The notes beneath the pieces were generated by a model. It saw only the letters and a program-made list of their open reading frames with translations. It had not been told where the DNA came from and searched no databases. Below, piece by piece: positions 13,663 through 27,804 of a stretch of DNA of 64,000 nt (position 1 is the stretch's first letter; each line of letters begins with the position of its first letter). The DNA is from Candidatus Uhrbacteria bacterium. Lineage in GTDB: Bacteria > Patescibacteriota > Patescibacteriia > 2-12-FULL-60-25. The stretch covers positions 238,511 to 302,510 of the forward strand of contig JADZEJ010000002.1 of the NCBI GenBank assembly GCA_020850575.1. The letters are read 5' to 3'. A program made the translations under genes and the position numbers.

Positions 13663-14748
13663 CTAAATAAGCTTTTGCATTATGATTTGCCACCGACTTT
13701 CCCAATCAAATTGCGACAGTACACGCTCGCGTGCATTTTTTCCAATCTTCGCAGCTTGTTCGGTATCAACGAGCAACGTACGAATCGCTTGTGCAACTTC
13801 CTCTGCACTCGTTGGATCCACAAGAATTCCGGTTTTGCCATCTATCACCGCTTCCATCGCGCCTCCTGAACATCCGGCAATTGTAGGTTTTCCTGCCATA
13901 GCCGCTTCAAGATACACGATACCAAATCCTTCTATATCATCAGCAGTTTCACGTGATGGCATGCAGAAAATGTCGCAAGCAAAAAACCAATCCCATTTTT
14001 GTTCATCGTTTGCAGAAACCCACATCACATCGACACCGACAGTTTTTGCCATTTCTTCCAGGCGTCCACGATCGGTTCCGGAACCGATCACGACATATCG
14101 AACTGATAACTCCGATTGAATCTTTGCCATTGCTTGAATGGTTACATCGATTCCTTTACGAGGAACAAAACGTGAAACCGTAAGCACGATTTTCATCTCA
14201 TCGCCGAGACCTAATTTTTTTCGCGCTTGTTTTTGTTCCTTCTTCTCACGCAAACGGATGCCTGGAGTTATTATGATCGATTTGACATTGTCCGGAGCAC
14301 ATCGTTCTTGCAAAAGGTTGGCCGTGGCCTGGCTATTCACGAAAAGCGCACGAGCTCGTTTACAGATCAAGCGTAACAAAAATCGTTTCCAGGTTGATGA
14401 TGCCAACTTTAAATCCAAACCATGAAACAGAAGACTATACTCTGGACCTCCGAATATCCGTGCAATCCAAGCAGCGAAACCGACTGGAAACACATGACTG
14501 ATTAAAACCTGCTCATCGGTTGCAATTTTTGTCCGAAATAATCGCACAAGCGGCCACCACACAGGCTTTTGTGTTTGAAACATTGGTAGCGCCATCACAT
14601 GACCTGGTCCATCCGTTTGATGTTCTTCTGGAACAACAACACGCATTCTACCAGCTGCCTCCTGCACCAATTCAGACACATAGCGCGCAACACCCCCAAC
14701 TTCTGGCGGATAATCAAGCGTCACAAGAACAAGACGTTTAAGAGGCAT
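13663..14748 (-). CDS. GT-B fold glycosyltransferase (family 4/1)
   Basis: Has the EGFGIVYLEAAMAGKPTIA motif. The MPLKRLVLVTLDYPPEVGG start is at 14748. The ORF track extends to 14805. Confidence 0.85.
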   Translation of the reverse strand: MPLKRLVLVTLDYPPEVGGVARYVSELVQEAAGRMRVVVPEEHQTDGPGHVMALPMFQTQKPVWWPLVRLFRTKIATDEQVLISHVFPVGFAAWIARIFGGPEYSLLFHGLDLKLASSTWKRFLLRLICKRARALFVNSQATANLLQERCAPDNVKSIIITPGIRLREKKEQKQARKKLGLGDEMKIVLTVSRFVPRKGIDVTIQAMAKIQSELSVRYVVIGSGTDRGRLEEMAKTVGVDVMWVSANDEQKWDWFFACDIFCMPSRETADDIEGFGIVYLEAAMAGKPTIAGCSGGAMEAVIDGKTGILVDPTSAEEVAQAIRTLLVDTEQAAKIGKNARERVLSQFDWESRWQIIMQKLI

Positions 14749-16195
14749 GTATTTTTTCAGGAATGCTGGCTCGACGAAAACTAAGAATTCGTCGAATATC
14801 AGCAACGGTAATCAGGCGAAAGAGAAAAGCTGCACACACCGCAACCGCGGCTCCAAACAATACCGTTGGTATTATTGGCATGTATTCTCCAACTTCATGC
14901 CATGCTATCCAAGATGCAACAGAAGCGAATGTTGTTCGAGTCAAAATAGAGGTATGGATTTTCCATCCACCAGCGTCTCTTGCTGTCAAAACGGCACCAA
15001 TGAGATACAAACTCCAAAAACTAAAAATCGCTGCCCAAGCAGCACCTATCGGTCCCATACTCGGAACCAATACTGCGTTCAATAAAACATTAATAAACAT
15101 GGTTGCAACCATGGCTGTGGTTTTCAATCGAGCACGATGTGATGCATTGAGTAGAGAGCCGATTGGAAAATCCAAAAAAATTGGAATTAATACCCATGGC
15201 AAAATTTCGAGGACGGGTATGGTTGCCAAATACGTATTACCATACAATATCTTAATCAAAAATCCCGCCAAGCCCGACAATCCTGCTGCTAATGGAAAAG
15301 AGACAGCTGCCATAAAACGTAACGATCCAACAAATGTTTCTCGTAATTCTTGATGCGACTGTTTTGCCCAGGCTCGAGACAAGGCCGGATACAATGCCGC
15401 TATAAACGTTAGCGGTAAAAACTGTAGGGCATAAGTCAGTTTATAAGCAACGGAATAATATCCAACCGCTTGTTCGCCGTAAAATGCTTGAATCAATAAA
15501 CTATCAACGTAGGAATACACTTTGACTGCAATACCTGCCACAGCAAAAGGCACAGCTTCATGCATAAGTGCCATAAAATCAGCTTTGATCGGACTCGTCC
15601 ATGCAAGTTCTAGTTTTTTAAATTGAACCAAAGCCCAAAATACATTCCACAAACTGCCAAGTAACAATGCTGCAACCAAAGCCACCGGACCAAGATCAAA
15701 ATATGCGACTGAAATTGCAACAATTGTTGTCAGAATTTGTCCGATTAACATGCCTATTGCTTCAGGTTTCAATTTTTCATGCCCTCGCAAAATTCCGTAT
15801 AATACAAGATGAAAAGTGTCTGCCGTCATGACCAAACAAGCTACGCCAATGGTTGCAAGTGTTAGCGCATCGACTTGCTTGAAATATCCGTAAGACAAAG
15901 CACATATAATAGCGATTGGTACCAAAACACATTTAGCCCGAATAGCGGCTGAAAGATAACGTACTGCCTGCTCTCTTTGTCCTGCAATGGCACGAATAAC
16001 CACTGGCGTCATTCCCAGGTCTGCTAACGTGACAAAAATAGAGGTCACGGACACGCCAAAAAAATAGACACCGGTGACCTGCGGACCACTCCAACGCGCA
16101 ACCAAGGTGAAGCTGATAAAAGCTAAAACCTTGTTTAAAGTAGTTGCAATCACCAAATAACTCGCATTTTTAGCGATAATTGCGCTTTGAGACAT
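14738..16195 (-). CDS. Wzx-like MOP-family polysaccharide flippase
   Basis: 485-aa protein with about 12-14 TM segments, first in the glycosyltransferase operon. Confidence 0.75.
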   Translation of the reverse strand: MSQSAIIAKNASYLVIATTLNKVLAFISFTLVARWSGPQVTGVYFFGVSVTSIFVTLADLGMTPVVIRAIAGQREQAVRYLSAAIRAKCVLVPIAIICALSYGYFKQVDALTLATIGVACLVMTADTFHLVLYGILRGHEKLKPEAIGMLIGQILTTIVAISVAYFDLGPVALVAALLLGSLWNVFWALVQFKKLELAWTSPIKADFMALMHEAVPFAVAGIAVKVYSYVDSLLIQAFYGEQAVGYYSVAYKLTYALQFLPLTFIAALYPALSRAWAKQSHQELRETFVGSLRFMAAVSFPLAAGLSGLAGFLIKILYGNTYLATIPVLEILPWVLIPIFLDFPIGSLLNASHRARLKTTAMVATMFINVLLNAVLVPSMGPIGAAWAAIFSFWSLYLIGAVLTARDAGGWKIHTSILTRTTFASVASWIAWHEVGEYMPIIPTVLFGAAVAVCAAFLFRLITVADIRRILSFRRASIPEKIHAS

Positions 16196-16258
16196 GCCCG
16201 TAGTTTAGCGGAAATATTGTATTCTTCCAAATTCTGTCAAAATCTGTAAAGACTATAC

Positions 16259-16287
16259 TTGACAAAAATATATACATATGCTATACA
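16259..16287 (+). promoter_or_regulatory. sigma70-type promoter with extended -10
   Basis: TTGACA (16259-16264), a 17-nt spacer ending in TGc, then TATACA (16282-16287). Confidence 0.6.
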
Positions 16288-16344
16288 ATATTTTCACCTT
16301 GTGAAACTGACTTTTTGGCAGATTCTCGAATGTGCCTAATAGTC

Positions 16345-16391
16345 ACCTACGGACGGCTCATAACACCAAACCAACCCCTAACTCCGTAGGT
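16345..16391 (+). promoter_or_regulatory. 5' UTR stem-loop ahead of the high-GC orphan gene
   Basis: ACCTACGGA (16345-16353) pairs with TCCGTAGGT (16383-16391). The RBS GAGG at 16395-16398 lies just downstream. Confidence 0.4.
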
Positions 16392-16403
16392 CATGAGGTC
16401 AAA

Positions 16404-17639
16404 ATGGTCATCAATTCTCCTTCACAGTTTCTCGCGGCCATGCAGCAGGTCAACCAGGTCGGTATTCCCGAGCTCATCGAAGCCGAAGCTGAGATGAAGT
16501 CGGAAGTCGTCGAGACCAAAAAGCCGGCTCTGCCGGTGGACATGCGTCCCGAGTGCAAACTCGTGACCTGCGGAGAGCGGTTCACGCCCCCCGAGGGTTA
16601 CATCGACGGCTACTGCCGCAAGTGCCATCCCGATGGATGGGCGTTCGCCGAAGATCGCAAGACCAAGGTGCAGGTGCCCTCGGTGAGGATCTGTAGCAGG
16701 ACGGACTGTCTCAAGGCGTTCATTCCGCCTAAGCAGTACCCCTTCGCCGCCAACTGCCCGACCTGCCACGCCAAGGACGTGGCGGAGCGCAAGGCTCTCT
16801 GGGCTAAGCGCACCGAGGAAGACCGGAGGCTTGCCGAGGAGCGCCGTGCAAACGGCGTGATCAAGGCGCGTGACAAGGAGGAAGCGAGGCTCAAGACCGA
16901 GGCCGCCAAGCAGGCGCGTCTCCAGGCTGTGGGCTGCCCATCCTGCAAGACCTGCCATCGGTTCTTCGAACCGGTGTACGCAGGTGCGCTGTACTGTCAG
17001 CCCTGTGCGCGCGAGTACAAGCGCAAGCAAGTTGAGGACTACGCCAAGGCCCAAGCCGATCAGAAGGCTCGGGCAGACGCAGATAAAGCGCTCGCCGAGC
17101 GCGGCATCCTGACGCAGAGCGAGCGCGCGCGCCGCTTCGAGGAGCTGAAGTCGCTCTTCGTCGCTGGGAAGGACATGCCGGAAGGCACGACCCTGACCCG
17201 GAACGGGACGCAGCTCGTCTTCGTCCAGCTGACGAAGGATACGCACCCCGATGGCTCGCCTAAAAAACTGAGCCTGTCGGGTCACTGTTCGCTCACCTCG
17301 ACCGAGTGCGCCGAGGCAGAGGCTCTCAAGGCCAAGGCCGAGGTCGCGAAGCGCAAGCTCGAGACCGAGCGCGCCGAGGCCGAGCGCGCTCGCAAGGTGC
17401 TCGAGGCGAAGAAGAAGGAGCTTGGCGAACGGTACCTCGAGGGCACACTGCCCGCAGAGGTGACTGCGCTGGTCATCACCGAGCAGACCGGAAAGAAGGG
17501 AGAGACCAAGTCTCTCCTCCGGATCAGCTTTGCGGACGGCAGCCCGTCCATCGACATGCCGGTCCCCGTCAAGGAGACCAAGAAGGCTAAGTCGAAGAAG
17601 GACGAGGGCGCCAAGAAGGGTAAGAACAACAAAAAGTAA
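16404..17639 (+). CDS. high-GC orphan protein with three zinc-ribbon-like repeats and a Lys/Glu/Ala-rich coiled-coil tail
   Basis: ATG at 16404 sits 5 nt after GAGG. Strong GC3 codon bias. Repeats are CKLVTCGERFTPPEGYIDGYCRKC, CSRTDCLKAFIPPKQYPFAANCPTC and CPSCKTCHRFFEPVYAGALYCQPC. The ORF track starts at a GTG at 16332. Confidence 0.75.
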   Translation: MVINSPSQFLAAMQQVNQVGIPELIEAEAEMKSEVVETKKPALPVDMRPECKLVTCGERFTPPEGYIDGYCRKCHPDGWAFAEDRKTKVQVPSVRICSRTDCLKAFIPPKQYPFAANCPTCHAKDVAERKALWAKRTEEDRRLAEERRANGVIKARDKEEARLKTEAAKQARLQAVGCPSCKTCHRFFEPVYAGALYCQPCAREYKRKQVEDYAKAQADQKARADADKALAERGILTQSERARRFEELKSLFVAGKDMPEGTTLTRNGTQLVFVQLTKDTHPDGSPKKLSLSGHCSLTSTECAEAEALKAKAEVAKRKLETERAEAERARKVLEAKKKELGERYLEGTLPAEVTALVITEQTGKKGETKSLLRISFADGSPSIDMPVPVKETKKAKSKKDEGAKKGKNNKK

Positions 17640-17665
17640 CAAAGGAAAGGAAAACATCATTCTTT

Positions 17666-17705
17666 AGGGGACAAGCGTCGTGCTTGTCCCCTTTTTCTTT
17701 TTTTA
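17666..17705 (+). terminator. rho-independent terminator
   Basis: AGGGGACAAGC, a 5-nt loop, GCTTGTCCCCT, then a T-rich run. Confidence 0.8.
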
Positions 17706-17730
17706 ATTTCTCCTGTTAGACTAGATTTCT

Positions 17731-17904
17731 ATGTGGACCGTAAGCAATGACATGCTTCTCGACATTAAACCGACACTTTCAGATCAAGAGGCTCTAGACA
17801 TGGCGACTGCGGTTACAAAAAAAGCAGTTGGTGAAGCTGCTTTGATTGATATTCATCGCATTCGCGCGAATAAAATGCGGGTGATCATCTACGTTCAAAA
17901 CTGA
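17731..17904 (+). CDS. possible 57-aa hypothetical protein
   Basis: Hand-found ORF below the track cutoff (MWTVSNDMLLDIKPTLSDQEALDM...VIIYVQN). Host-like composition and no recognised motif. Confidence 0.3.
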   Translation: MWTVSNDMLLDIKPTLSDQEALDMATAVTKKAVGEAALIDIHRIRANKMRVIIYVQN

Positions 17905-17927
17905 ATACGTTTCTTCATATTCAATAG

Positions 17928-18654
17928 CTACACATCTTTTTTTCTTGTCCAGAAACAAATACTCGGAAACAACTGTTCTTTTAAGCGAAGATCTGTGACT
18001 TTTTTTGAGATTTCCGCTTCAATATGAACAATCTCACGCATCAATTCTTCGTTCATATGACTTTTCACCAAACGCACTAAGTTTGGCATATTATTCCAAG
18101 TAACTTCTTCGATATCACATTGTTTTTCTAATAACGATTGAACCCATTCAATTTTGAGATAACGCGCGACTTTATACTCTGGAATAAAACGGATTAATGG
18201 CGTACCGCATAGACGCGTTTGAATCCATTCTTTTGTATTTGATGGATACAGCGCGTGTCCTAAATCATACAAGTGAATCACTTCTCCACCCACCCGTGCC
18301 ATCTTGACAGAAAATTTTAGTAACTATTCTAATTTTTTTACATGCTCAAGAACACTTAAAGAAAAAACAATATCAAATTGTCCTTGCAATGGCTGATCAT
18401 ATCCTAATCCTTGTTGAATACTTGCCTGAGTAAAAGACGATAACCTTGTTTGTGCTTTTCTTGCTGATTGTGGATCTGGTTCAATCCCAATATATTCGAT
18501 ATTTGAAAATTTTTGCAGAAGCTGCTCTGCGATTTCTGATGTACCACAACCAATTTCAAGTATTCGTATTGTCTTTCTATCGTATTTCTGTATTTTTTTG
18601 TATTTTCTCTACAAATGTATATTTTGAAGGTTTTGTTGGAAACATATTATTCAT
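17928..18654 (-). pseudogene. class I SAM-dependent methyltransferase, disrupted
   Basis: Motif I RILEIGCGT. The N-terminal MNNMFPTKPSKYTFVEKIQK is in another frame across an A7 run near 18591-18600. An in-frame TAG lies at 18324-18326 (LEHVKKLE*LLKFSVKMARVGGEV). Confidence 0.7.
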
Positions 18655-18700
18655 TAATACAACTTTCACGAAATCTAGGCTCACTGAAAAATAAGATACC

Positions 18701-19377
18701 TCAGCATTTTGAATTCTCGCTACTATTTTTTGAGGTATTCTTTGCTAAGACTAAAAAAGACAATCCTAACAAACTCGGAAATATTTTAGATAGTCGACGC
18801 ATTAGATACCCAAGTACTCTTTTATCCGTCCAAAATGTATTTGTAACTGTTCTATCAATTTGCCAACCTGTTTTTTTTAATAATTCTTTTAAAACTGTAT
18901 CCGTAAACCAGTACATATGACCTTTCTTAGGATGATTATTTTCTGGTACCCCCCAATAAGGACTTGTAAACGCGCCGGAAGTGAACAAAAATTAGGAACC
19001 GAAATAATAATTTGATCAATATTGCGGGACTGAAGAGTAGACAGAATTTTTTCTGGTTCAAGAAGGTGCTCTAACACGTCTAATAAAACCGCTGTCTTTA
19101 TTTTTTTATCCGGCAATATACCACTCCCAAAATCAAAAAATTCCGCATTCAATTTTTTTTCTCGACAAATATTAACGGAAGAAGCAGAAAAATCTACTCC
19201 CCATGAGTCTAATCCTATCTCTTTCAATTTTTGTAATAAAAATCCGTCTCCACACCCAATATCAACAATTGGCTCATTGTTTTTGTTTAACCATGCAAGC
19301 GCTTGTCGATGACGGAAAACTTCCAGCTGATGGTGCCGCTCCCAATATTGATCTTGAAATGAAGAAAGCATGCTCAT
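18701..19377 (-). pseudogene. class I SAM-dependent methyltransferase, frameshifted
   Basis: Motif I IVDIGCGDG and LLDVLEHL. The frame breaks in a T5 run near 18980 (..IIISVPNF | LFTSGAFTSPYWGVPENNHPKKGHMYWFT). Confidence 0.75.
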
Positions 19378-19420
19378 AATATATTTTTAGTATATCCCGT
19401 GCGATTTACTCGCGCAATAC

Positions 19421-19447
19421 AAAAAACTCGCATACTGTGAGTTTTTT
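19421..19447. terminator. bidirectional rho-independent terminator, probably the ancestral rpsI terminator
   Basis: A-run, ACTCGCA, loop TAC, TGTGAGT, T-run. It lies just outside attL. Confidence 0.7.
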
Positions 19448-19486
19448 GTTCAATATTTCGTTTTGAATATTGTGGATCTTGGCGAT

Positions 19487-19506
19487 TAACGCTTTGACCA
19501 CTAAGG
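19487..19506. repeat. attL direct repeat (relic copy of the rpsI 3' end)
   Basis: TAACGCTTTGACCACTAAGG matches 27885-27904 at 19 of 20 positions. Confidence 0.75.
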
Positions 19507-19633
19507 TTCGCGCGGTTCCTCTTTTCTACGGCCGCTTTCTGGCGGCCTCTATGTATGAAAATTACGTCTCAACCTTGACCCAAGCTTAGCTTGTAATACC
19601 TACTTGGTCAAGTAATCGGAATAAAAAGGGCTT

Positions 19634-19810
19634 CTAGGCAAGTTTCGCCAAGGTTTGACCCTGGCGAGCTTTGCGGCGATGGCGTTGGACGATCTTGTGA
19701 ACCGTTGTCCAATGGAGGTTGAATTCGCCAGCCACCTCCCGAATTGTACTACCCGATAAACATTTTCTCACGATTTGCAGATTCCGCTGCGATTTTTCTG
19801 GCCTGGACAT
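19634..19810 (-). CDS. possible 58-aa helix-turn-helix protein (excisionase or regulator candidate)
   Basis: Hand-found ORF MSRPEKSQRNLQIVRKCLSGSTIREVAGEFNLHWTTVHKIVQRHRRKARQGQTLAKLA. It has an HTH-like core and overlaps the integrase 3' end out of frame by 62 nt. Confidence 0.4.
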   Translation of the reverse strand: MSRPEKSQRNLQIVRKCLSGSTIREVAGEFNLHWTTVHKIVQRHRRKARQGQTLAKLA

Positions 19811-20819
19811 AGGATTGCTCTAAGATATTACCTACTGGCTCAGATGCAGACTGTTTTTTATCCACCGATGCATCGAACGATGCCTCAAACACCTTGCGAT
19901 ACTCATGCTCCACATCCGTGTTTTTGTACCCCATATATATGGTGGTCGAACGGATGTTCGCGTGGCCCATCATGACTTGAAGATATCGGAGATTCACGTT
20001 TCTTTTGACGCCAAGAGATGCGAATCCATGTCGGCATGAGTGAGGCGTGATCCGCTTCTCGATACCTAGCTTCGCCCTGGCCGCACGGAACGTCTTTTGA
20101 ACCGCGCTGCGATCCATGCGTTTTGGCTCCGTGGCCGTATTGAAGCTGATGAATAGAGCTTCGGAACCGCTGTCCTTCCGACCAAGGATACGTTCCCTAA
20201 CTTCGATCCAGCGTGCCAGCAAACGATTCGTTTCATCGTCCCAATACACCTCACGCTTGTGATATTTGCACTTAAAAGTCTTTGCAACTGCTTTTCGCTG
20301 GTTCAGATCAATGTCGTCCACGTTCAGATTGAGCATCTCGCCTAAACGCAGACCCGTGTTGTAAAGGAACGCGACGATTGTCTTATCCCGCAATTCCTTG
20401 GGATACATTTCATCGTACAGGTTTAAGATCGCTTTATATTCATGAGGCTCAAGAAACGGATGGGACTCCTTTTCGACACCCTGCGGAACCGGAATGAGAT
20501 CGTCATTGATTTTAACTTTCCCCTGACGATAGAGCCATTTCCACAACGTCCGGAGTGACGTGATGTACAGAGCTCGCGTACCGCCCCTCAGTCCCCGATT
20601 CTCCAGCCAGATGTGATACCTGGAGAGATCGTCGATATCACAATCGGTCAGTACCTTCCCGAGTTCGTTCAGGTACTTGGTCAATGAATAAAGCGCGAAC
20701 TTATAGGACGAGACTGTAGCCGGAGACCGGCTGCCGCCCAGCCAAACGAGGAAACTGTCGATAATCTTATCGTTATCGATCATATAAACCGCCCACCCTA
20801 CTTCCGCCTCGGATTGCAA
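19749..20819 (-). CDS. tyrosine site-specific recombinase (phage integrase / XerC-D family)
   Basis: Motifs NTGLRLGE, HSCRHGFAS and GHANIRSTTIYMGY (catalytic R..HxxR..Y). An alternative start MIDNDK lies at 20783. Confidence 0.9.
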   Translation of the reverse strand: MQSEAEVGWAVYMIDNDKIIDSFLVWLGGSRSPATVSSYKFALYSLTKYLNELGKVLTDCDIDDLSRYHIWLENRGLRGGTRALYITSLRTLWKWLYRQGKVKINDDLIPVPQGVEKESHPFLEPHEYKAILNLYDEMYPKELRDKTIVAFLYNTGLRLGEMLNLNVDDIDLNQRKAVAKTFKCKYHKREVYWDDETNRLLARWIEVRERILGRKDSGSEALFISFNTATEPKRMDRSAVQKTFRAARAKLGIEKRITPHSCRHGFASLGVKRNVNLRYLQVMMGHANIRSTTIYMGYKNTDVEHEYRKVFEASFDASVDKKQSASEPVGNILEQSYVQARKIAAESANREKMFIG

Positions 20820-21065
20820 GCCTTGGCGGTTTCGGATGGGCGGTATTACTACACTCTCACGATATGCAAGAGTCGGACAACCATATCAAAGTTGCCCGAG
20901 AAAGCAATAACCAACCTACCCGCGCCGTTTGCAATGACATCCCATTGGGACGCCGCCCTATTCGGGCACGATGCGGTTAAAGGGTCGGGAATTAAATTAG
21001 TAAGCCCCGACAAGCGGTTGTACCGTAGCTTGGCTTGGGAAAGCAAGCAAATCAGAAATAACGCG

Positions 21066-22067
21066 TTATTTATCAGAAATTAGCCATGCGATGTTTTGAA
21101 CTTTTTCAGATAGCTTATGAGTGTATCCGTGGCTAAGCAGTCCCACGTAAGATGCGACTGTCTGAGCGTTTGGACTCTGCCTCACTCTTTTCAGGATCCT
21201 CGATTTCGTCTTCTGGCGCGGGACGCGATGGTGTGGGAAATGCACCCAGCCGAGAAAATCCACTCCCGAGGCAAGCGTCTTAATGAAGACTTTATTCGGA
21301 TACAGTTCCAAGTCCAATGGTCCAGCGAGAAATGCGGCGATTTTAGGAAGGCATTCGAGCAACTCCTGTCGGTCGCGTGATAAAAATACAAAATCGTCGG
21401 CATAGCGAGCGTAGTATTTCGCCCTCAATTCATGCTTCACATACCGATCAAACTCATTCATGTAAATGTTAGCAAAGATCTGTGAAGTAAGATTGCCAAG
21501 CGGTATACCTTTCCCCGGGCGAGTCTGAAAGCTCACGATGACGCGTCGAAGTAAATCTAGAAGCCACCTGTCTGCGATTCTCCGATCCAAAATCTCGAGA
21601 AGGATTTGGTGATTGATGCTCGCAAAAAATTTCCGGATGTCGCATTTCAAAACCCAACACGTTTTAGTGCCGTTCTTGCTCGCTTTTCTAGACAGCCTCT
21701 CGAAGCGCTCAAGCGCACGATGCAACCCCTTGGTTTTCTGGCATGAAAAAGAATCGAAAATGAACACACTGGCGAAAAATGGATATAGCTTCCGATGAAT
21801 GGCATGATGCAGCAACCTATCCCGCACGGTCGCTTTGTGGATTTCCCGCGGCTTTGGATCGTTAATGCGGAAATGCGAGTAAGTGCCATGGCAATACGTG
21901 CCATTCATCAAATCCAGATGCAAATTCGCGATCTCGTCCCCGAGACGGAGCATGAACTCCTGCACATCTTTCTTCTTTCGTTTCCCTCGGATAAACTCTT
22001 GCCAAGCTTCACATAAATTTTCCATCGATACGATTTCATCGAAGGAGATAAATAATAATTTTCTCAT
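21066..22067 (-). CDS. DGR reverse transcriptase
   Basis: Motifs GIPLGNLTSQIFANIYM (DGR-type xxSQ motif) and YARYADDFVF (YxDD), about 333 aa from MRKLLFISFDE. A TR and VR lie nearby. The ORF track extends to 22145. Confidence 0.9.
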   Translation of the reverse strand: MRKLLFISFDEIVSMENLCEAWQEFIRGKRKKKDVQEFMLRLGDEIANLHLDLMNGTYCHGTYSHFRINDPKPREIHKATVRDRLLHHAIHRKLYPFFASVFIFDSFSCQKTKGLHRALERFERLSRKASKNGTKTCWVLKCDIRKFFASINHQILLEILDRRIADRWLLDLLRRVIVSFQTRPGKGIPLGNLTSQIFANIYMNEFDRYVKHELRAKYYARYADDFVFLSRDRQELLECLPKIAAFLAGPLDLELYPNKVFIKTLASGVDFLGWVHFPHHRVPRQKTKSRILKRVRQSPNAQTVASYVGLLSHGYTHKLSEKVQNIAWLISDK

Positions 22068-22081
22068 AGAGGAGTATGTTA

Positions 22082-22092
22082 CCCCCCCCCCC
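22082..22092. repeat. C11 (G11 on the minus strand) homopolymer between the RT and avd starts
   Basis: Direct count of eleven consecutive C. Confidence 0.9.
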
Positions 22093-22116
22093 GCAAAAAT
22101 CACGTCAAATCTTCCC

Positions 22117-22464
22117 GTGTTGCAGAAGGTTGTTGATGTATACAAAATCTGGCACGCCCATTATTCAAATTTCCCCCGTCTTTCTAAATTTTCACTCGGC
22201 GCAAAAATAGACTCTCTGTTCACCGACCTGATCGAGCTCATCTTTCTTGCCGGTTATGCCGGATCCGATCAAAAATACACGTTCGTAGTACGCGCATCTA
22301 CAAAACTCGATCTACTTAAATTTTTCATGCAGGCCGCATGGGAAGTAAAGTGCTTGGACCAAAGAAAGTACGCGGCACTCGCTGTACCGCTGAACGAAAT
22401 CGGAAAAGACATTGGTAGCTGGCAAAAATTCCTACAAACGAAACAGCCCCCATCCAAAGAATGA
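22117..22464 (+). CDS. avd: Avd-like four-helix-bundle protein (accessory variability determinant family)
   Basis: KIWHAHYSNFPRLSKFSLGAKI...LKFFMQAAWEVKCLD...IGKDIGSWQKF resembles the Avd / 23S-IVS four-helix-bundle family. GTG start at 22117. The 21883-22116 part of the tracked ORF is antisense to the RT. Confidence 0.75.
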   Translation: MLQKVVDVYKIWHAHYSNFPRLSKFSLGAKIDSLFTDLIELIFLAGYAGSDQKYTFVVRASTKLDLLKFFMQAAWEVKCLDQRKYAALAVPLNEIGKDIGSWQKFLQTKQPPSKE

Positions 22465-22493
22465 GGGCGTTCGTTATAAAAACGTGAAGAGAT

Positions 22494-22624
22494 TTGCGGA
22501 CGAACAGGAACCGGTTGTCGGAGTTCCACTCGTTGTCGAACCAGTTGTTGTCGAGGATGCGCCTGTCGGAGTTGCTGTTCAGCATCGCGACGTTGCGGTT
22601 GTCGTCGTACATCGTGGACGAGCC
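22494..22624 (-). repeat. DGR template repeat (TR)
   Basis: 131 nt homologous to 22998-23131. It is adenine- and AAC-rich on the minus strand (9 AAC codons in the VR frame). Confidence 0.85.
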
Positions 22625-22877
22625 GTCCTGTCCGTGTCGGGAGCCATCCAGATCACCACCGCTTGAATCATCTCGCGGTTGAATTTTATTCGGGGCCGTT
22701 AGCCCGCCAGCTCCCAACACCAAGTATCTTCAGTTCATGAACGAGCCGACGCACGCTGCCGACCGGCGTACCGCCCGGCATTCTGGCAAACGAGCTCATT
22801 CAGATTTCGACCGCCTGCAACCGTAATCGCAAGCTGTTTCGTCTACTATCCGTGTGTAATTTTATCAAAAAGCAAGC

Positions 22878-22929
22878 GACCCCGTCCAACGCGCGAATCC
22901 AAGTTTCGGATTGCGTGTCGGACGGGGTC
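22878..22929 (-). other. long GC-rich hairpin downstream of the VR (terminator and/or DGR homing-associated stem-loop)
   Basis: GACCCCGTCC pairs with GGACGGGGTC, with an imperfect interior and an apical AATCC/GGATT stem. A T5 run follows on the minus strand. Confidence 0.6.
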
Positions 22930-22993
22930 TGAGCGCCAAGAGTCCAAGGTCCCAAGAGCCTTTTTAAGGGCCGAGGGACCGAGGGTCCAAGTG

Positions 22994-23659
22994 CTACTTG
23001 CGGACGAACAGGAACCGGAAGCCGGAGCGCCAACCGCGGGCGAACCAGTCGCTGCCGAGGATGCGCCCGTCGGAGACGCTGCACAGCATCGCGACGAAGC
23101 GGTCGTCGCCGTCGTACCGCGTGGACGAGCCGAGAGCGACGATCCAGAACTGACGCTGCAGCTCCGGGTTGGCCTTGGCGAACGCGTACGCCTCGAGGTG
23201 GGTCGCGGGGCGGTAGCCCAGCTTGTCCATCTCAGCGATGGCGTCCTCGGACTCGATCGCCCGGTTGAAGTGCTTGACGAGCATGATGCGCTCGCCCGGC
23301 GTCTGGTCGATCTCGGCGCACGACGAGTGATTCTTCCACTCGTAGTTGCCGTAGAACAGCTCTGACACGCCGTCCTTCGAGAACTCGCTCTCGAGCTTGG
23401 CCTTGTCGCGCGGCATCTCGTAGCTGACCGGCACGCGGTACTCGCCATCGACGAGCGGTCGCTCCATCTCCGAACCGGCCGGGACGATGAGATCTGCGAT
23501 CTGCTTCTGCAGAGCGCTTTCCTTCACCACCCGCCGCAGGTGCTGCATGGTTCCGCCCTTGGCCATGACGGCGTGAGCGATCACCTTGAAGACCTCGAAC
23601 GCGAAGCCGAGATTGCTGAGTACGTCACCGATCGCCTGATCCTTCTTGTTCTGTCGCAT
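22994..23659 (-). CDS. DGR variable (target) protein, C-terminal VR of C-type-lectin-like style
   Basis: ATG at 23659 sits 6 nt after GGAGAG. The C-terminus is ..GSSTRYDGDDRFVAMLCSVSDGRILGSDWFARGWRSGFRFLFVRK. High GC. The tracked ORF starts at a GTG at 23686. Confidence 0.85.
   Translation of the reverse strand: MRQNKKDQAIGDVLSNLGFAFEVFKVIAHAVMAKGGTMQHLRRVVKESALQKQIADLIVPAGSEMERPLVDGEYRVPVSYEMPRDKAKLESEFSKDGVSELFYGNYEWKNHSSCAEIDQTPGERIMLVKHFNRAIESEDAIAEMDKLGYRPATHLEAYAFAKANPELQRQFWIVALGSSTRYDGDDRFVAMLCSVSDGRILGSDWFARGWRSGFRFLFVRK
22998..23131 (-). repeat. DGR variable region (VR)
   Basis: Aligns to the TR with about 22 substitutions at TR adenines, 2 at other bases and one extra codon. The last 20 nt are identical (CGGTTCCTGTTCGTCCGCAA). 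Confidence 0.85.
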
Positions 23660-23790
23660 GGTCGTCTCTCCGTTTTTCCGGCTCACCTCTTAATCCCGCA
23701 CCATGCAGGACCACAAGGCTTGCCTATCCGTGACCGAAGCTAAGTAGACACTTGGAAATGTAAGGTTCAGAACCGTAGTCTGAATAAAAC

Positions 23791-23819
23791 AAGATAGCAT
23801 AAAACAGGCCTTTTGTCAA
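23791..23819 (-). promoter_or_regulatory. sigma70-type promoter for the DGR target gene
   Basis: On the minus strand: TTGACA, a 17-nt spacer ending in TGc, then TATCTT. Confidence 0.55.
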
Positions 23820-23866
23820 GGGATAAACGCCAAAATTTGGCTAAAATATAATATTTCTACGAAAAT

Positions 23867-25550
23867 TTAGCCAATTCTCTGAATTTCTTCAGTTAACACA
23901 CTGCTAATAGCACGTCTCCACTCAGATGCCTCTTGACTATCACGTAGAATGCAACAGCGATCTAGCAAATCCTTCACGTACTGGACGTTAACTTTGTTGT
24001 TAATAAATTGCGCCTCAAAAAATTCCTTAAACTGGATAAGCGTAAAAGGCACGATATTCAATCGAACCCTCTGTTCGTCTTTGTTGAACCACTCACCTCT
24101 CCGAAAAGTTTCGAGAGTATTAATGTCTATCTTATTCGCGATGAATAATCCGTAGACCGGTTTGGTTGTCCGTTCTGCAATCACAGACACATGACGGCGT
24201 ACCGGCTCACCCTCAACCGCCTCCTGTCTTGAACTCTCAGTCAGCGTAACCTCAACCACCAATATAAAATTCTCCAGTTCAAAAATTAAATCCGGTCCGT
24301 TGCCTGGAGCTGTACCAATTGGAAGAAAATCTTGATCAATTTTAAATCTTCGCGCTTCGTATGGTTTATTGATCAAACTATACTATTGCCAGAAAAGCTC
24401 TCCATAAAACCCATTCAAAATACGCAGCCGCTTCAGCTTTAGGAACCTGAATTTGATTGCCTTCGGAAAGGGTGGCGGAACGGAGTTTCCCTGAGATCAA
24501 ATCCATGTACGTTGCGATCTCTTTCCATTCAGCTGCTTGGTCAATCGCATATTTCTCTTCATTGGCACGACTGAGTAATTCCTCAGCTTGGAATCTTACT
24601 TGTCCGATATCCGCAGGCGTCTTTAGCGATTCCTTTTTGACTTCCAGCTTCAAATTTTTATCTTTCAGGCGTTCGAGTAAGTCGTCGAGTACCACCAAAG
24701 CTGAATCCTTATCGTCAGTTGGCAGCGCGGCTCCATTGCAAAGTGCCGTGAAGTAGGCAATTTCAGACTGAGGCATCTGACTTTGCTGAACGAACTTCTC
24801 AATAAATAGATGCTTCTCTGGGATGATGGAAATTCCCCTTCCAGCACCCTGAACCAAACCAGTCGCCTTTAAATAACGAATATTTGTGTCCGCGTAATCA
24901 TTGAACGTCTGCTCTTTATAATCATGCACTACTGAAGCCTTTTCACGTTCAACTCGATCGAATTTACGTTTATTATCACTCGATAATCGACGTGATCGAA
25001 TATCCAAAACGCGATGAACCACTTCACTGAGATCATCGTCGCTATTTGTCAGCTGTGCTACAACAGCCATTTCGATAAAATTGATTCTGCTATCACCGGT
25101 TTCTCTTTCAAGTTCCAACATGATTTTCAAAATATGCTGCAACGGAGAGAATACAGAAAACTCATAGTCATCTTCCAGCACCGATGGTATGACGTAGGCC
25201 GCAAGCGATCTTAAAAAACACTCCTGCATTGCAGGAACCGTCTCTGCTTTAATGAGTCTTAAACCGTTCGGTGTGATTCTATCGACTTCACCAATTTGCG
25301 CCTGATCAATGCCGAGAGATTTTGGGATCTCTGGATACAAAAAACCGAGCTTGGTTAATGCCGATCGCCACTTCCGTCCGACACTATAGGTTTTATCCTC
25401 GCCCAGCTCCACAATGCCATGCTCCCCGAGGAGTTTACGAAATGCAATGTCCTGCTCCTTACCTCGCAAGTTCCCTTGAAGTTCCGATCCATAGAGCGCT
25501 ACAAGGCCATCGCGCAGGCGAAATGGACTGCGGACGGTTGTGTTTCCCCC
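23867..25550 (-). pseudogene. AlwI-family-like type II restriction endonuclease, frameshifted and lacking its own start
   Basis: Has GNTTVRSPFRLRDGL, GRKWRSALTKLGF and YADTNIRYLKATGL. The frame breaks at 24376-24378. The nuclease core continues as PDLIFELENFILVVEVTL...GEPVRRH. The family call is from memory. Confidence 0.55.
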
Positions 25551-26051
25551 GCCATAGGTCGATGACCGAATGATGGAGCGGTACCAAGTCGAACCAATCT
25601 TGAACAGGTACACGCGACCTACGGTGAAGATCGTCGTTTGGTCTCCTGCGATCGTGTGTTGGTTTGCTGCAGAGACGGTCGTGACGGTTGATTGCAGAAT
25701 CATGCCTTGGGTTACCGGTCCGATCTCGATTTGCATGCCGTCAAAATGCGCTTTCGTGAGATGAAGCTCGATGACGGTTCCTGCGGCGTGCGTAGCGGTC
25801 GTCGTGCCGTTGTATCCGCGCGTATCGATTGTGCATGTGACCGTCCCGCCTGAAATCGACATAGCCGAAAGCAAGATCTGTTCCTGCTCAATCGTGAGAA
25901 TCGCCTTGGATCCAGCCGGCATGTTCCACGATTGCGTACCAAGAACGGACGATGAAGATCCTGTGAAATTGCCGGACGTGAGCGAAGAAAGGAGCTGGGC
26001 GTCCAGCAGGAAAGAAGCGCGATCGAGAATGTAGATGTTTTGGTATGGCAT
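25545..26051 (-). pseudogene. phage tail-fibre-like N-terminal fragment (5' part of chimeric ORF 24378..26051)
   Basis: MPYQNIYILD...TRGYNGTTTATHAAGTVIELHLTKAHF resembles phage fibre N-termini. It is high GC, unlike the AlwI-like part. Confidence 0.45.
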
Positions 26052-26052
26052 A

Positions 26053-26313
26053 TCAGAAATAACGTGAATAATGGATTTCAGTCACCGCGATCGAGAAACC
26101 CGAGCCGGTGAGCGTGATCTTGAAGATATTGGTACCCGCTACGACTTTCGGAAGGATGCCCGTGTAATCAATGTCGACTCCGTTTTTTGTGACTCGTTTA
26201 TTCTCTCCGTCAATGATGACCTGATCGCCATTCGTGAAGCTCCCAGCGATGATGAGCTTGTCGCCATTCGTTGTGTTCTCCCGTGTGATTTGCGATACGG
26301 TGCCGGCCGTCAC
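26053..26313 (-). pseudogene. C-terminal fragment of a phage distal-tail (Dit-like) protein
   Basis: ..DQVIIDGENKRVTKNGVDIDYTGILPKVVAGTNIFKIT.. matches the typical siphophage tail-component C-terminus. Only about 86-95 aa remain. Confidence 0.4.
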
Positions 26314-26318
26314 GAGGG

Positions 26319-26867
26319 TCAGGTACGCGAGAGCATCCGCTTGCCGTTGACGGTCGCGATCGCGTCGACCAAGTCCGCGTATCCGTGGACGCGCGAGTAG
26401 ATGAGCTTTTCGGCGTGTTGGAATCGCACGTCATGTTCGTTGAACCAGCTCAGGAACGCGTTGATGCCGGCACGGACGCGTCCGTCCGAATCGTCCGGAA
26501 TAGACGGAACGTCCGATCGATGGATGACTGCGAGCGCGAATGCTTCCGCGTACGCGTGCACCATGTCTCCGATGGATGCCGCTTGTTCCTTCTTGATCTG
26601 GTGTTGGCGGACGGCTTCCTCGATAACCGGAACGATTTCCTCGACCGTGAACGGTCCGGAATTGGATTCGAGGAATGAACGGAGGTGCTTCTCGGCAAGC
26701 CCAACTGCCCATGGGATGAGGAATCGGGACTTGTCGATGATGCCCGTGCAAGCCGTGACCGAAAGCAGGTATTCTTTCGAACCTTCGATCCGGTAACGGT
26801 GCGAGTCAGGCAGATGCTCGAGCGTGATTTCTCCGCCGTAGAGCTTCTCGGTGATTTTTTCAGCCAT
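26319..26867 (-). CDS. phage PD-(D/E)XK-type exonuclease, apparently C-terminally truncated
   Basis: HRYRIEG..LLSVTACTGIIDKSRFLIPWA..GDMVHAYAE..GYADLVDAI pattern. It ends abruptly where the tail fragment begins. Confidence 0.5.
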   Translation of the reverse strand: MAEKITEKLYGGEITLEHLPDSHRYRIEGSKEYLLSVTACTGIIDKSRFLIPWAVGLAEKHLRSFLESNSGPFTVEEIVPVIEEAVRQHQIKKEQAASIGDMVHAYAEAFALAVIHRSDVPSIPDDSDGRVRAGINAFLSWFNEHDVRFQHAEKLIYSRVHGYADLVDAIATVNGKRMLSRT

Positions 26868-26871
26868 ATGG

Positions 26872-27702
26872 TTAGACGGCTGCCGCGACTTTGGTTCGCG
26901 CGGTTTCGAGTGCCTGATTCGGATCGACTTGCGGTTTGGCTGGCGCGGGCGGAGTCACCGGAGCTTCGGTTTTTGGTTCCGCAGCAACAGGTTTCTTTGA
27001 CCACGCATAGCTTTCCGTGCCATGGACGGCCTTAATGATCTTCGAAAAGTCCGGCTCGATGATTTTCCCGAGCTGGCCAGTCCGATCCTTGGCCGTGAAC
27101 TTGTCCGATGAAGGATCCACGAATATGACGCGCTTCGATTCGCCGTCGGCGGTTTGAACGACCGTCATGTAGCCGACCACGTCAACCATGTTCACGATGT
27201 CCTTCGAGACTTTGGTCGTGATAAGCGGACGCAAAAGAACCCGATCTTCGTCAGGCTTGTCGTCCACGTGGGCGATCAAAAGAACGTGCATGCCGGAGTC
27301 CCGGAGCACCTTCACGTAGTCGCGCATGGTTTTACGGAGCCACCCCAAACCAGCTTGGCTGGGAGAGCCATCCTTTTGTACGAGCTTGGAATCGCCGAGA
27401 GCCCCCATGTGGCGCATGAGCTTTTCCATGAGTTCACCGATAGGGTCGATGACGGCAGTTTCGTACCCGCTCTTTTTGAGAGCTTCGGTGTACTCTCGCA
27501 TGTCGGCCCATTTCTCGACGTGAGCCACGTCGAGTTTGATCCCGCGCAATCCGAAATACTTCGAACCGTTCTCGCAGTCCGCCATGAGCGGCTTGGGAGC
27601 GGTTGATGCAAACGTTGATTTGCCGACGCCGCCTTCGCCATACACGAGCATGACGAGCGGAGGTTTAACCGACGGATCGCCGGTGTTGATGATTTTGAGC
27701 AT
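26872..27702 (-). CDS. Sak4-like AAA_24 phage recombination ATPase
   Basis: LVMLVYGEGGVGKSTFASTAPKPLMADCENG (Walker A plus an AAA_24-style N-terminus). RBS AAGAGGA upstream. Confidence 0.8.
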   Translation of the reverse strand: MLKIINTGDPSVKPPLVMLVYGEGGVGKSTFASTAPKPLMADCENGSKYFGLRGIKLDVAHVEKWADMREYTEALKKSGYETAVIDPIGELMEKLMRHMGALGDSKLVQKDGSPSQAGLGWLRKTMRDYVKVLRDSGMHVLLIAHVDDKPDEDRVLLRPLITTKVSKDIVNMVDVVGYMTVVQTADGESKRVIFVDPSSDKFTAKDRTGQLGKIIEPDFSKIIKAVHGTESYAWSKKPVAAEPKTEAPVTPPAPAKPQVDPNQALETARTKVAAAV

Positions 27703-27804
27703 AGTTTGGTCCTCTTAATGAATGGAATAAGTCCTCTGCCGGATTTACCGCCGGCACGGCCCGACCTTGAGAGGCGATGACGAATTCCATACAAGAGGCG
27801 CCAA

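Follow-up and report, generated by a model that had tools for sequence, protein, structure and literature searches.

A persistently GC-rich, hairpin-dense orphan gene inherited beside wzx in Candidatus Uhrbacteria

The 64,000-nucleotide stretch of Candidatus Uhrbacteria DNA considered here (contig JADZEJ010000002.1, positions 238,511 to 302,510; hereafter the window) carries, divergently from the wzx gene, a single G+C-rich open reading frame (ORF) for an orphan protein of 411 residues. As judged by comparison with orthologous loci from independent metagenomes, the gene is vertically inherited and clade-restricted, occurring in a small group of Candidatus Uhrbacteria (Patescibacteria, the Candidate Phyla Radiation or CPR), and its high GC is an equilibrium state rather than un-ameliorated foreign DNA. 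The coding sequence (CDS) also folds upon itself more stably than its codon usage accounts for, and is preceded by a conserved structured leader RNA that pairs the Shine-Dalgarno (SD) sequence.

16404-17639, + strand: CDS, 411 aa, GC-rich and hyper-structured, for an orphan zinc-ribbon / coiled-coil protein (composition, homologues, start alignment, folding)

An earlier note on this DNA had described a single-gene GC island, and the jump is real: 200-nt windows within 16400-17599 contain 58-67% GC as compared with 29-49.5% in the flanks (32.5-49.5% upstream, with 32-37% over 16100-16399, and 29-42% downstream, low again by 17600-18800). The 411-aa ORF occupies the whole of the GC-rich stretch. 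Its GC content is 62.6%, that of the window outside it 42.0%, and its GC at first, second and third codon positions (GC1, GC2 and GC3) is 0.619, 0.447 and 0.813, the GC3 of the window's native genes being 0.27-0.45. Back-translation of the protein with window codon usage (2000 draws) gave 44.3 +/- 0.8% GC and a GC3 of 0.301 +/- 0.022 with a maximum of 0.37, far below the real CDS; the anomaly is therefore almost wholly one of synonymous codon choice and not of amino acid content.

Descent and equilibrium composition

The data set comprises the window copy and seven orthologous loci (L001 to L007), eight sequences in all. The gene product is deposited at NCBI as MCC7357271.1, 'hypothetical protein IT408_02075 [Candidatus Uhrbacteria bacterium]', from a contig of 318 kb, and an identical 411-aa product is called on an independent 36.8-kb Logan contig. 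An exhaustive phmmer search of 1.84 billion cluster representatives yielded six family proteins and no donor-side homologue; word-indexed searching gave a seventh member, two such searches returning family members only, and the eighth locus, L007, came from a scan of JGI metagenomes. No homologue of the gene was found in 185,579 GTDB representative genomes, nor in IMG/VR, the INPHARED phages or the PLSDB plasmids.

All homologues placed on contigs (L001-L007, from independent metagenomes) are divergent from the wzx start and have a common promoter, the order wzx (divergent), promoter, gene, terminator being common to the eight loci. On the longer contigs (L004 and L005) the order extends to Memo-PriA-def-fmt-GT2/Wzy-GT2-GT4-wzx, the gene, and later rpsI-rplM-rplQ-rpoA, and that of the window is identical. 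No phage genes adjoin the gene: wzx and glycosyltransferase genes flank it on one side, and on the other it is followed by a conserved small ORF and the ribosomal-protein operon. What varies is the stretch from the gene to rpsI, which is empty in L005, holds NAGPA and small ORFs in L003/L004 and an island of ~10 kb in the window. Identity of the gene to the window copy is 0.77 in L001, 0.63 in L002, 0.48 in L003/L004 and ~0.37 in L005/L006, and that of the first 78 residues of wzx, in the same locus order, is 0.94, 0.88, 0.83, 0.81 and 0.62-0.66. The parallel ranking of gene and wzx, taken together with the synteny, therefore points to vertical inheritance of a fast-evolving gene.

Chimerism is excluded because the same junctions recur in eight assemblies and the identical product is found on the second (Logan) contig. 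No direct repeats bracketing the gene were found, in keeping with the earlier note, and the window contains no tRNA gene; a recombinase, which that note had not seen, is nevertheless present as a tyrosine integrase (19749-20819) 2.1 kb downstream. It is part of a separate island, and L004 and L005, which are without the island, carry the gene. The possibility had also been raised that homologues would reveal a conserved lineage gene of normal composition elsewhere. A conserved lineage gene it is, but the composition is not normal elsewhere, since every orthologue is GC-rich.

The GC3 of the gene is 0.813 in the window and 0.908, 0.863, 0.876, 0.829, 0.889, 0.845 and 0.806 in L001 to L007, respectively, the orthologous CDSs containing ~63-68% G+C in the eight genomes. 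Neighbouring genes have GC3 values of 0.27-0.78 overall: 0.27-0.45 in the window and 0.45-0.64 in L004/L005, leaving out a ribosomal-protein operon and one adjacent ORF of L005 (0.70-0.78). Between the window and L004 the wzx protein is 75% identical and the four-fold degenerate sites of wzx are identical at 0.20, chance being 0.21; the synonymous sites of this pair are therefore saturated. Over the same distance wzx GC3 shifted from 0.34 to 0.60, which is also its range among the copies, while that of the gene stays at 0.81 or above. Synonymous retention, normalised as (identity - chance)/(1 - chance), compares as follows.

Window-L001: gene 0.58, wzx 0.47
Window-L002: gene 0.26, wzx 0.24
L005-L007: gene 0.03, wzx 0.03

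In the deep pair L005-L007 the synonymous identity of the gene is 0.35 against a chance value of 0.33, and GC3 is still high. The silent sites of the gene thus turn over at a wzx-like rate yet stay G or C, which argues for a sustained gene-specific bias and not for leftover foreign composition.

The bias is losing ground in the window genome, the most AT-rich of the set, where the GC3 of the gene is decaying toward that of the genome. The window branch, polarised by L002, shows 27 GC>AT and 2 AT>GC synonymous changes, as compared with 10 and 4 on the L001 branch, where the sites stand at ~9:1 GC:AT. The 32 amino acid changes on the window branch are likewise largely AT-directed (A>T, A>V, T>I, V>I). 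Despite this AT drift the window copy keeps all Cys ligands and an intact reading frame.

Edges, folding and expression signals

Codon use in the gene (GAG 0.79, CGG 0.23, AGG 0.13, CCC 0.48) differs from that of the ribosomal-protein genes (GAA 0.83, CGG 0.03, AGG 0.00, CCA 0.63). CTC, CGC, ACC, AAG and NNC codons are favoured by both; the gene also uses GGG, which is avoided in the ribosomal-protein genes, and its GC3 offset from other genes is by estimate roughly 2-10x theirs. Because the preference is a blanket one for G/C-ending codons and includes codons that the ribosomal-protein genes avoid, the bias is not tRNA adaptation.

The edges of the GC-rich regime lie near those of the CDS. 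The leader contains 45-52% GC, and the first 40 codons in L001-L004 are already at GC3 0.82-0.93. At the other end the homologue P0004 has a 29-codon C-terminal extension (L003 2154-2240) of GC3 0.25 that includes TTA codons, probably a recent loss of the stop codon that reads into the 3' untranslated region (UTR) and marks the end of the GC-rich regime. The wzx gene, ~210 bp from the gene, has ordinary GC3, and this together with the sharp edges argues against conversion tracts. The low frequency of A at third positions also leaves a long frame open on the opposite strand.

16422-17660, - strand: 412-aa antisense ORF, open in the absence of sense TTA, CTA and TCA codons; a by-product, not a gene

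Self-folding of the CDS was measured as the mean minimum free energy (MFE) of 120-nt windows relative to synonymous-codon shuffles that keep the protein, the codon usage and GC3. The CDS folds more stably than its shuffles in 8/8 orthologues (z -3.5 to -10.3), whereas 16 control genes give z values of +2.0 to -3.0 bar two, an AAA_24 ATPase gene (-3.6) and an IS110 transposase gene of L005 (-9.7). The target ORF of a diversity-generating retroelement (DGR) in the window, with a GC3 of 0.905, shows no excess (z -0.26). Dinucleotide shuffles are less stable than the gene by 4.8-9.2 kcal/mol per 120 nt, whereas native controls differ from theirs by -1.4 to +1.9. A folding tool scored two window segments of the gene at z -3.18 and -2.26 and one from L003 at -5.09, a segment of wzx coming out at +1.01. 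The IS110-type transposase gene (Transposase_20), alone among the controls in matching the excess folding of the gene, lies at 18968-20515 on the + strand of L005 and has a GC3 of 0.88 in a genome of ~55% GC.

The expression signals around the CDS are as follows.

16259-16264, + strand: -35 hexamer TTGACA, perfect (read from the sequence; conserved among loci)
16279-16287, + strand: extended -10, TG-c-TATACA, 17 nt after the -35 (conserved T.TG.TAT)
16296-16399, + strand: structured 5' leader RNA of ~105 nt (RNAalifold, covariation, covariance model)
16296-16304 paired with 16391-16399, + strand: leader P1, the closing helix
16308-16345, + strand: leader P2 hairpin (RNAalifold)
16346-16353 paired with 16383-16390, + strand: leader P3 (RNAalifold)
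16395-16398, + strand: SD GAGG in the P1 3' arm, paired to CCUU, 5 nt upstream of the ATG at 16404
17666-17702, + strand: intrinsic terminator, 12-bp stem with 7 GC pairs (hairpin 17666-17692) and T-run

These signals support a predicted monocistronic unit with its own promoter, structured leader, SD and terminator, the predicted transcription start being ~16294-16296. All seven aligned loci keep CTTGACAAAA and T.TG.TAT unchanged, and both occur also in L007. The near-consensus extended -10 promoter claimed earlier has a perfect -35 and a conserved TGnTAT, but its -10 hexamer agrees with the consensus at just 4/6 positions, and a consensus promoter scanner missed it. The ribosome binding site and the strong terminator of the earlier note are both present as it described them, an equivalent hairpin and T-run being found in L002, L004, L005, L006 and L007. 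Its 9-bp UTR stem-loop is present as well, but proves to be only one helix of a larger, three-helix leader. The ATG at 16404 aligns with the orthologue starts and agrees with the 411-aa Logan gene call; the deposited NCBI start at Met13 (399 aa) is thus, by this alignment, probably too far downstream.

The leader fold is carried by covariation. RNAalifold on five orthologues gives 35 pairs (the closing helix and two hairpins), 10 of which show compensatory changes; in the MAFFT alignment of leaders 92.5% of cells are paired, against 29-41% with partners slid by 1-3 columns, and the covariation score was reached by 0/500 shuffles. A covariance model built from the five leaders finds the untrained leader of L007 (35 bits, E 7e-8), the protein of which is distant (~38% identical over its whole length and 32% over the best tblastn segment). 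With L007 included (six sequences) 93% of cells are paired, against 30-41% with slid partners, and 15/35 pairs covary, in an alignment that is fitted to the model and leans toward it. The window leader folded as a single sequence takes the same architecture at -33 kcal/mol (z -2.87). P1 pairs ACCUUGUGA (16296-16304) with UCAUGAGGU (16391-16399), the latter holding the GAGG, and is the least supported helix, with 80-83% of cells paired. The leader is common to 6/8 loci; the covariance model finds no leader in L005 or L006 and no second copy in the window.

In its conserved multi-helix form, its covariation and its closing helix with a CCUU anti-SD paired to GAGG, the leader resembles SD-sequestering leaders such as riboswitches, RNA thermometers and ribosomal-protein autoregulatory leaders. 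It differs from these in its restriction to 6/8 loci and in having no Rfam family, the best Rfam matches over 15900-18100 scoring 13.7-20.6 bits against gathering scores of 40-86.

Explanations for the persistent bias

The explanation that we favour, with a confidence somewhat above even, is that of a native, clade-restricted, gated gene whose CDS owes its lasting GC richness and hairpin density to a bias ending near the CDS boundaries. It builds on the vertical descent, conserved anomaly, equilibrium composition, excess folding and leader structure set out above. A sigma-70-type promoter (TTGACA, 17 nt, TGnTAT) would drive a monocistronic transcript ending at the strong terminator, and translation would probably be gated by whatever opens P1, which sequesters the SD GAGG. 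A bias stopping at or within ~30-50 nt of the CDS edges would hold GC3 at 0.81-0.91. Its cause may be selection on an mRNA property (stability, decay resistance or controlled ribosome transit), which is favoured because the edges lie near the CDS, tRNA optimality is ignored and the folding survives codon-preserving shuffles. On this reasoning such selection would be preferred over tRNA adaptation, horizontal gene transfer (HGT) and biased gene conversion.

A number of observations weigh against this explanation. The conclusions are drawn from eight sequences only, and in the window lineage the bias is plainly weak, as the 27 GC>AT against 2 AT>GC changes attest. The boundary is imperfectly codon-defined, ~30-50 nt past the stop being still GC-rich in L001, L002, L004, L006 and L007, although such stretches may have been left behind by shifts in the position of the stop codon. 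The antisense strand shows almost as much excess folding, the cause of which could lie in inverted repeats at the DNA level or in a mutational process; the sense/antisense comparison separates RNA-level selection from neither a DNA-level nor a mutational origin. Positional conservation of the CDS folds was not found, with 0-6 compensatory pairs per ~30 per segment. Strand symmetry and the lack of positional conservation therefore indicate a generic G-C hairpin density and not specific RNA elements. Specific conserved RNA elements inside the CDS are accordingly not claimed, the consensus-fold z of the CDS being a weak -1.4 as compared with -0.6 for wzx in an analysis whose gap-free stitching joins non-contiguous segments. 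The L005 IS110 transposase gene, an unrelated GC-rich mobile gene, shows similar excess folding, which may thus be a trait of some GC-rich (mobile) genes and not gene-specific. Finally, the selective agent is a conjecture, and the nucleic-acid-binding role suggested below for the product is taken from domain types, the family and fold searches being negative.

Four further explanations invoke foreign origin or processes other than selection on the mRNA, and a fifth a gene on the opposite strand. That the clade ancestor took the gene from a high-GC donor in an ancient HGT, and that all lineages are slowly ameliorating the relic, is unlikely. The codon usage does resemble what is found in high-GC genomes (GCC, CGC, GGC, CTC, AAG, GAG), the window copy is decaying in its silent sites (27 against 2) as well as in its AT-directed amino acid changes, and other high-GC3 genes arrive on mobile elements (the DGR target ORF, 0.905; the IS110 transposase gene, 0.88). 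However, synonymous turnover at about the wzx rate, near saturation in deep pairs, has left GC3 at or above 0.81 in 8/8 copies, the L001 lineage is near balance (10 against 4 on ~9:1 GC:AT sites), and the 1.84 billion cluster representatives contain no donor-side homologue. A recent single-gene transfer, such as the phage-moron-like cassette proposed in the earlier note, or an assembly chimera would account for the composition contrast and for the gene's own promoter and terminator, features that phage morons and single-gene islets share. This is highly improbable, being refuted by the eight syntenic orthologues (the window copy and seven others) in independent assemblies and by the identical product on a second contig. 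It is opposed as well by the wzx-congruent ranking, the lack of phage, plasmid or viral homologues and of flanking repeats, and the placement of the integrase in another island. Unlike morons, which are sporadic among close relatives, the gene lies outside any prophage, is without phage homologues and sits at one and the same site of the chromosome in every relative recovered.

Extreme translational selection, by which G/C-ending codons would be optimal for a very abundant protein, has a slim chance of being correct. The promoter is invariant and strong-looking, and the ribosomal-protein genes lean the same way for CTC, CGC, ACC, AAG and NNC, those of L005 reaching GC3 0.70-0.78 against 0.45-0.60 for other genes. 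However, the gene uses GAG, CGG, AGG, CCC and GGG, which the ribosomal-protein genes avoid; the window ribosomal-protein genes stand at GC3 0.30-0.45 against 0.81 for the gene; and the folding excess over shuffles that preserve codon usage is left unexplained. GC-biased gene conversion at a recombination hotspot beside the wzx/glycosyltransferase polysaccharide locus would explain the blanket G/C at free sites whatever their codon optimality and the short GC-rich run past the stop in several loci, and the downstream region is an insertion hotspot. It would explain neither the transition within tens of nucleotides of the ATG, nor the ordinary GC3 in every genome of wzx ~210 bp off, nor the excess hairpins, which it does not predict. 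The gene tree is moreover congruent with wzx, with no sign of frequent exchange, and conversion is thus considered very unlikely. That the high GC serves the 412-aa opposite-strand gene can hardly be right, even though that ORF (16422-17660) is full-length and L001, L004 and L005 also keep its frame open throughout. Its openness follows from the absent TTA, CTA and TCA codons and is automatic with the low A at third positions (0.02-0.08). The frame is broken in L002, L003 and L006, and the sense third positions (antisense first positions) have diverged to chance in deep pairs and show no added constraint.

A further reading, unlikely but not negligible, has selection act on the coding region as an RNA in addition to its role as a message. 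The GC-rich, hairpin-dense mRNA could then be a long-lived, translationally masked store, or a scaffold bound by its own zinc-ribbon, basic-tailed protein, which would regulate or package its own transcript; the leader would in both cases be the release switch. If true, ultra-small CPR cells would here show an adaptation that is specific to one gene and works at the level of composition, without described bacterial precedent.

Koski, Morton and Golding (2001) reportedly concluded that composition is a poor indicator of HGT. The gene resembles other native atypical genes that mimic HGT in being vertically inherited yet foreign-looking in GC and codon usage. It differs from them in a GC3 offset of +0.27 to +0.49 over its neighbours that is kept across saturating divergence in eight host genomes with GC3 of 0.3 to 0.6, in a codon preference that is not that of ribosomal-protein genes, and in its excess self-folding. 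To our knowledge there is no description of an inherited bacterial gene that maintains a GC3 offset of ~+0.3 to +0.5 with excess folding across saturating divergence, and a literature search on CPR zinc-ribbon proteins and persistent compositional outliers returned nothing pertinent. The components are each of a known kind (an atypical native gene, an SD-sequestering leader, a zinc-ribbon / coiled-coil protein). The leader and the protein family themselves are undescribed, and the GC-rich self-folding pattern is covered by no standard explanation. For the detection of HGT the gene is a clean counter-example: a GC island of +20 points, sharp-edged and with its own promoter and terminator, proves native and old. 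As a single CDS it lets a GC-favouring fixation bias be studied against a changing genomic background, and it bears on the long-standing question of what sets the GC content of bacteria, be it selection, biased conversion or mutation. To a phylum that is poorly understood it adds a candidate cis-regulatory leader RNA, backed by covariation, and a family of orphan zinc-ribbon / coiled-coil proteins, both of them new.

The protein and the neighbouring genes

An AlphaFold2 (AF2) model of the product, built on a 7-sequence alignment, has a mean predicted local distance difference test score (pLDDT) of 78.5 and a predicted template modelling score (pTM) of 0.34, values that together are consistent with an elongated protein. 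Its parts are as follows.

Residues 1-41: disordered region (AF2 model)
16554-16625, + strand: predicted zinc ribbon 1, C51-x4-C56 ... C71-x2-C74; C56, C71 and C74 invariant in 7 homologues
16692-16769, + strand: predicted zinc ribbon 2, C97-x4-C102 ... C118-P-x-C121-H122; invariant in the 5 closer orthologues
16935-17006, + strand: predicted zinc ribbon 3, C181-x2-C184 ... C198-x2-C201; four Cys invariant in 7/7, C178 non-conserved
Residues 119-176, 199-232, 238-253 and 299-346: helices (AF2 model)
17163-17561, + strand: two three-stranded beta units, aa 262-294 and 353-386 (AF2 model)
17577-17636, + strand: disordered Lys-rich C-terminal tail, residues 392-411, pLDDT below 50

The three tandem Cys units that had been read from the sequence (C51/C56...C71/C74, C97/C102...C118/C121 and C181/C184...C198/C201) are thus present and conserved, although ribbon 2 is missing from the homologue P0007. 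The predicted ribbon regions appear in the model as short beta elements with pLDDT of 57-84. The helical region and the Lys-rich tail described earlier are likewise seen in the model; a similar tail occurs in 6/7 homologues, P0007 ending earlier with a shorter basic tail. Each beta unit opens with a P-E-G-V/T-T-like motif, the two being separated by a 48-residue helix, and their pLDDT is mostly 84-93, lower (69) near residues 361-370. Besides the ribbon-1 and ribbon-3 cysteines, the residues invariant in the 7 homologues (P259, G261, R266, G268, T269, Q270, F273, S290, H294, T298 and E301) form a block in the first beta unit, P-x-G-x4-R-x-G-T-Q-x2-F...S...H...T..E. Protein length in the family is 411-547 aa. 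L001-L004 carry ~125-140 extra N-terminal residues (MFQALS..., an NGNGHH motif, Ala/Pro-rich), and the window copy, being nested among these, has lost them. No signal peptide, membrane segment or N-terminal hydrophobic stretch is evident on reading the homologue sequences, and the product is predicted from these to be cytoplasmic.

The earlier failure to assign a family has been confirmed by searches of Pfam, PHROGs, NCBIfam, PADLOC, PDB profiles and Foldseek. Pfam DUF7564 (PF24445) matches residues 51-100 against profile positions 6-54 of 76 with 28.2 bits and an E of 2.6e-6, below the 32.2-bit gathering threshold and over 50/411 residues, and 6/7 homologues give the match. DUF7564 is a family without known function, is not mentioned in the literature searched, and resembles the protein only in zinc ribbon 1 and its flank. 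The best PHROGs match (E 0.0016) is to a family of unknown function, NCBIfam and PADLOC give no match, the best PDB sequence-profile match has an E of 0.18, and Foldseek of the model against PDB and BFVD finds none at E <= 0.001. Assignment as a c-type cytochrome binding heme c through CxxCH was rejected, given the lack of a signal peptide, the single conserved motif and matches far below cut-off; the spurious cytochrome-c matches arise because of the CP-x-CH motif of ribbon 2, the other Cys pairing as four-Cys ribbons.

DksA/TraR proteins also place C4 zinc ribbons beside long helices, but the protein gives only marginal matches to zf-dskA_traR (PF01258; best E 0.011, in 2/7 members) and no structural match. 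The Lys-rich disordered C-terminal tail is of a kind present also in basic-tailed nucleoid proteins (the H1-like tails of Hc1 and HupB). A length of 411-547 aa, three ribbons and the two beta units set the family apart from either group. The likeliest role suggested by its domain types is that of an oligomeric, nucleic-acid-binding coiled-coil protein, an assignment that is more doubtful than not.

Directly 3' of the gene lies a 57-aa ORF (17731-17904, + strand; MWTVSNDMLLDI...) that is 93% identical in L002 and has no Pfam match. L003 and L004 have ORFs of 56-63 aa at a comparable downstream position, for which no sequence relation to the 57-aa ORF is claimed. Between this conserved ORF and rpsI the window carries the island (~17928-27800) that is missing from L004 and L005, a mosaic of 42-57% GC, above that of the host.

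18889-19377: S-adenosylmethionine (SAM) methyltransferase
19749-20819: tyrosine integrase
21066-23686, - strand: complete DGR
21066-22145, - strand: DGR reverse transcriptase (RVT_1)
22494-22625, - strand: DGR template repeat
22998-23129, - strand: DGR variable repeat, at the 3' end of the target ORF
22994-23686, - strand: DGR target ORF, 230 aa
23867-24376 and 24378-26051: AlwI-type restriction endonuclease, split into two ORFs
26872-27702: AAA_24 ATPase

The in-register mismatches between the two DGR repeats fall on template adenines in 23/23 cases.

The ribosomal-protein and rpoA genes of L005 (11080-14554) have GC3 of 0.70-0.78 as compared with 0.45-0.60 for its other genes, whereas the same genes in the window have 0.30-0.45 as compared with 0.27-0.38; how far GC3 enrichment goes with expression thus differs strongly between members of the clade. 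On the wzx side of the window (13663-16195, - strand) the glycosyltransferase family 4 (GT4) ORF, with a TTG start (13663-14805), and the wzx ORF (14738-16195) overlap by 68 nt in the output of a mechanical ORF finder. The corresponding gene calls in L004 and L005 overlap by only 11 nt, and in the window too the GT4 gene probably begins at a more downstream start codon.

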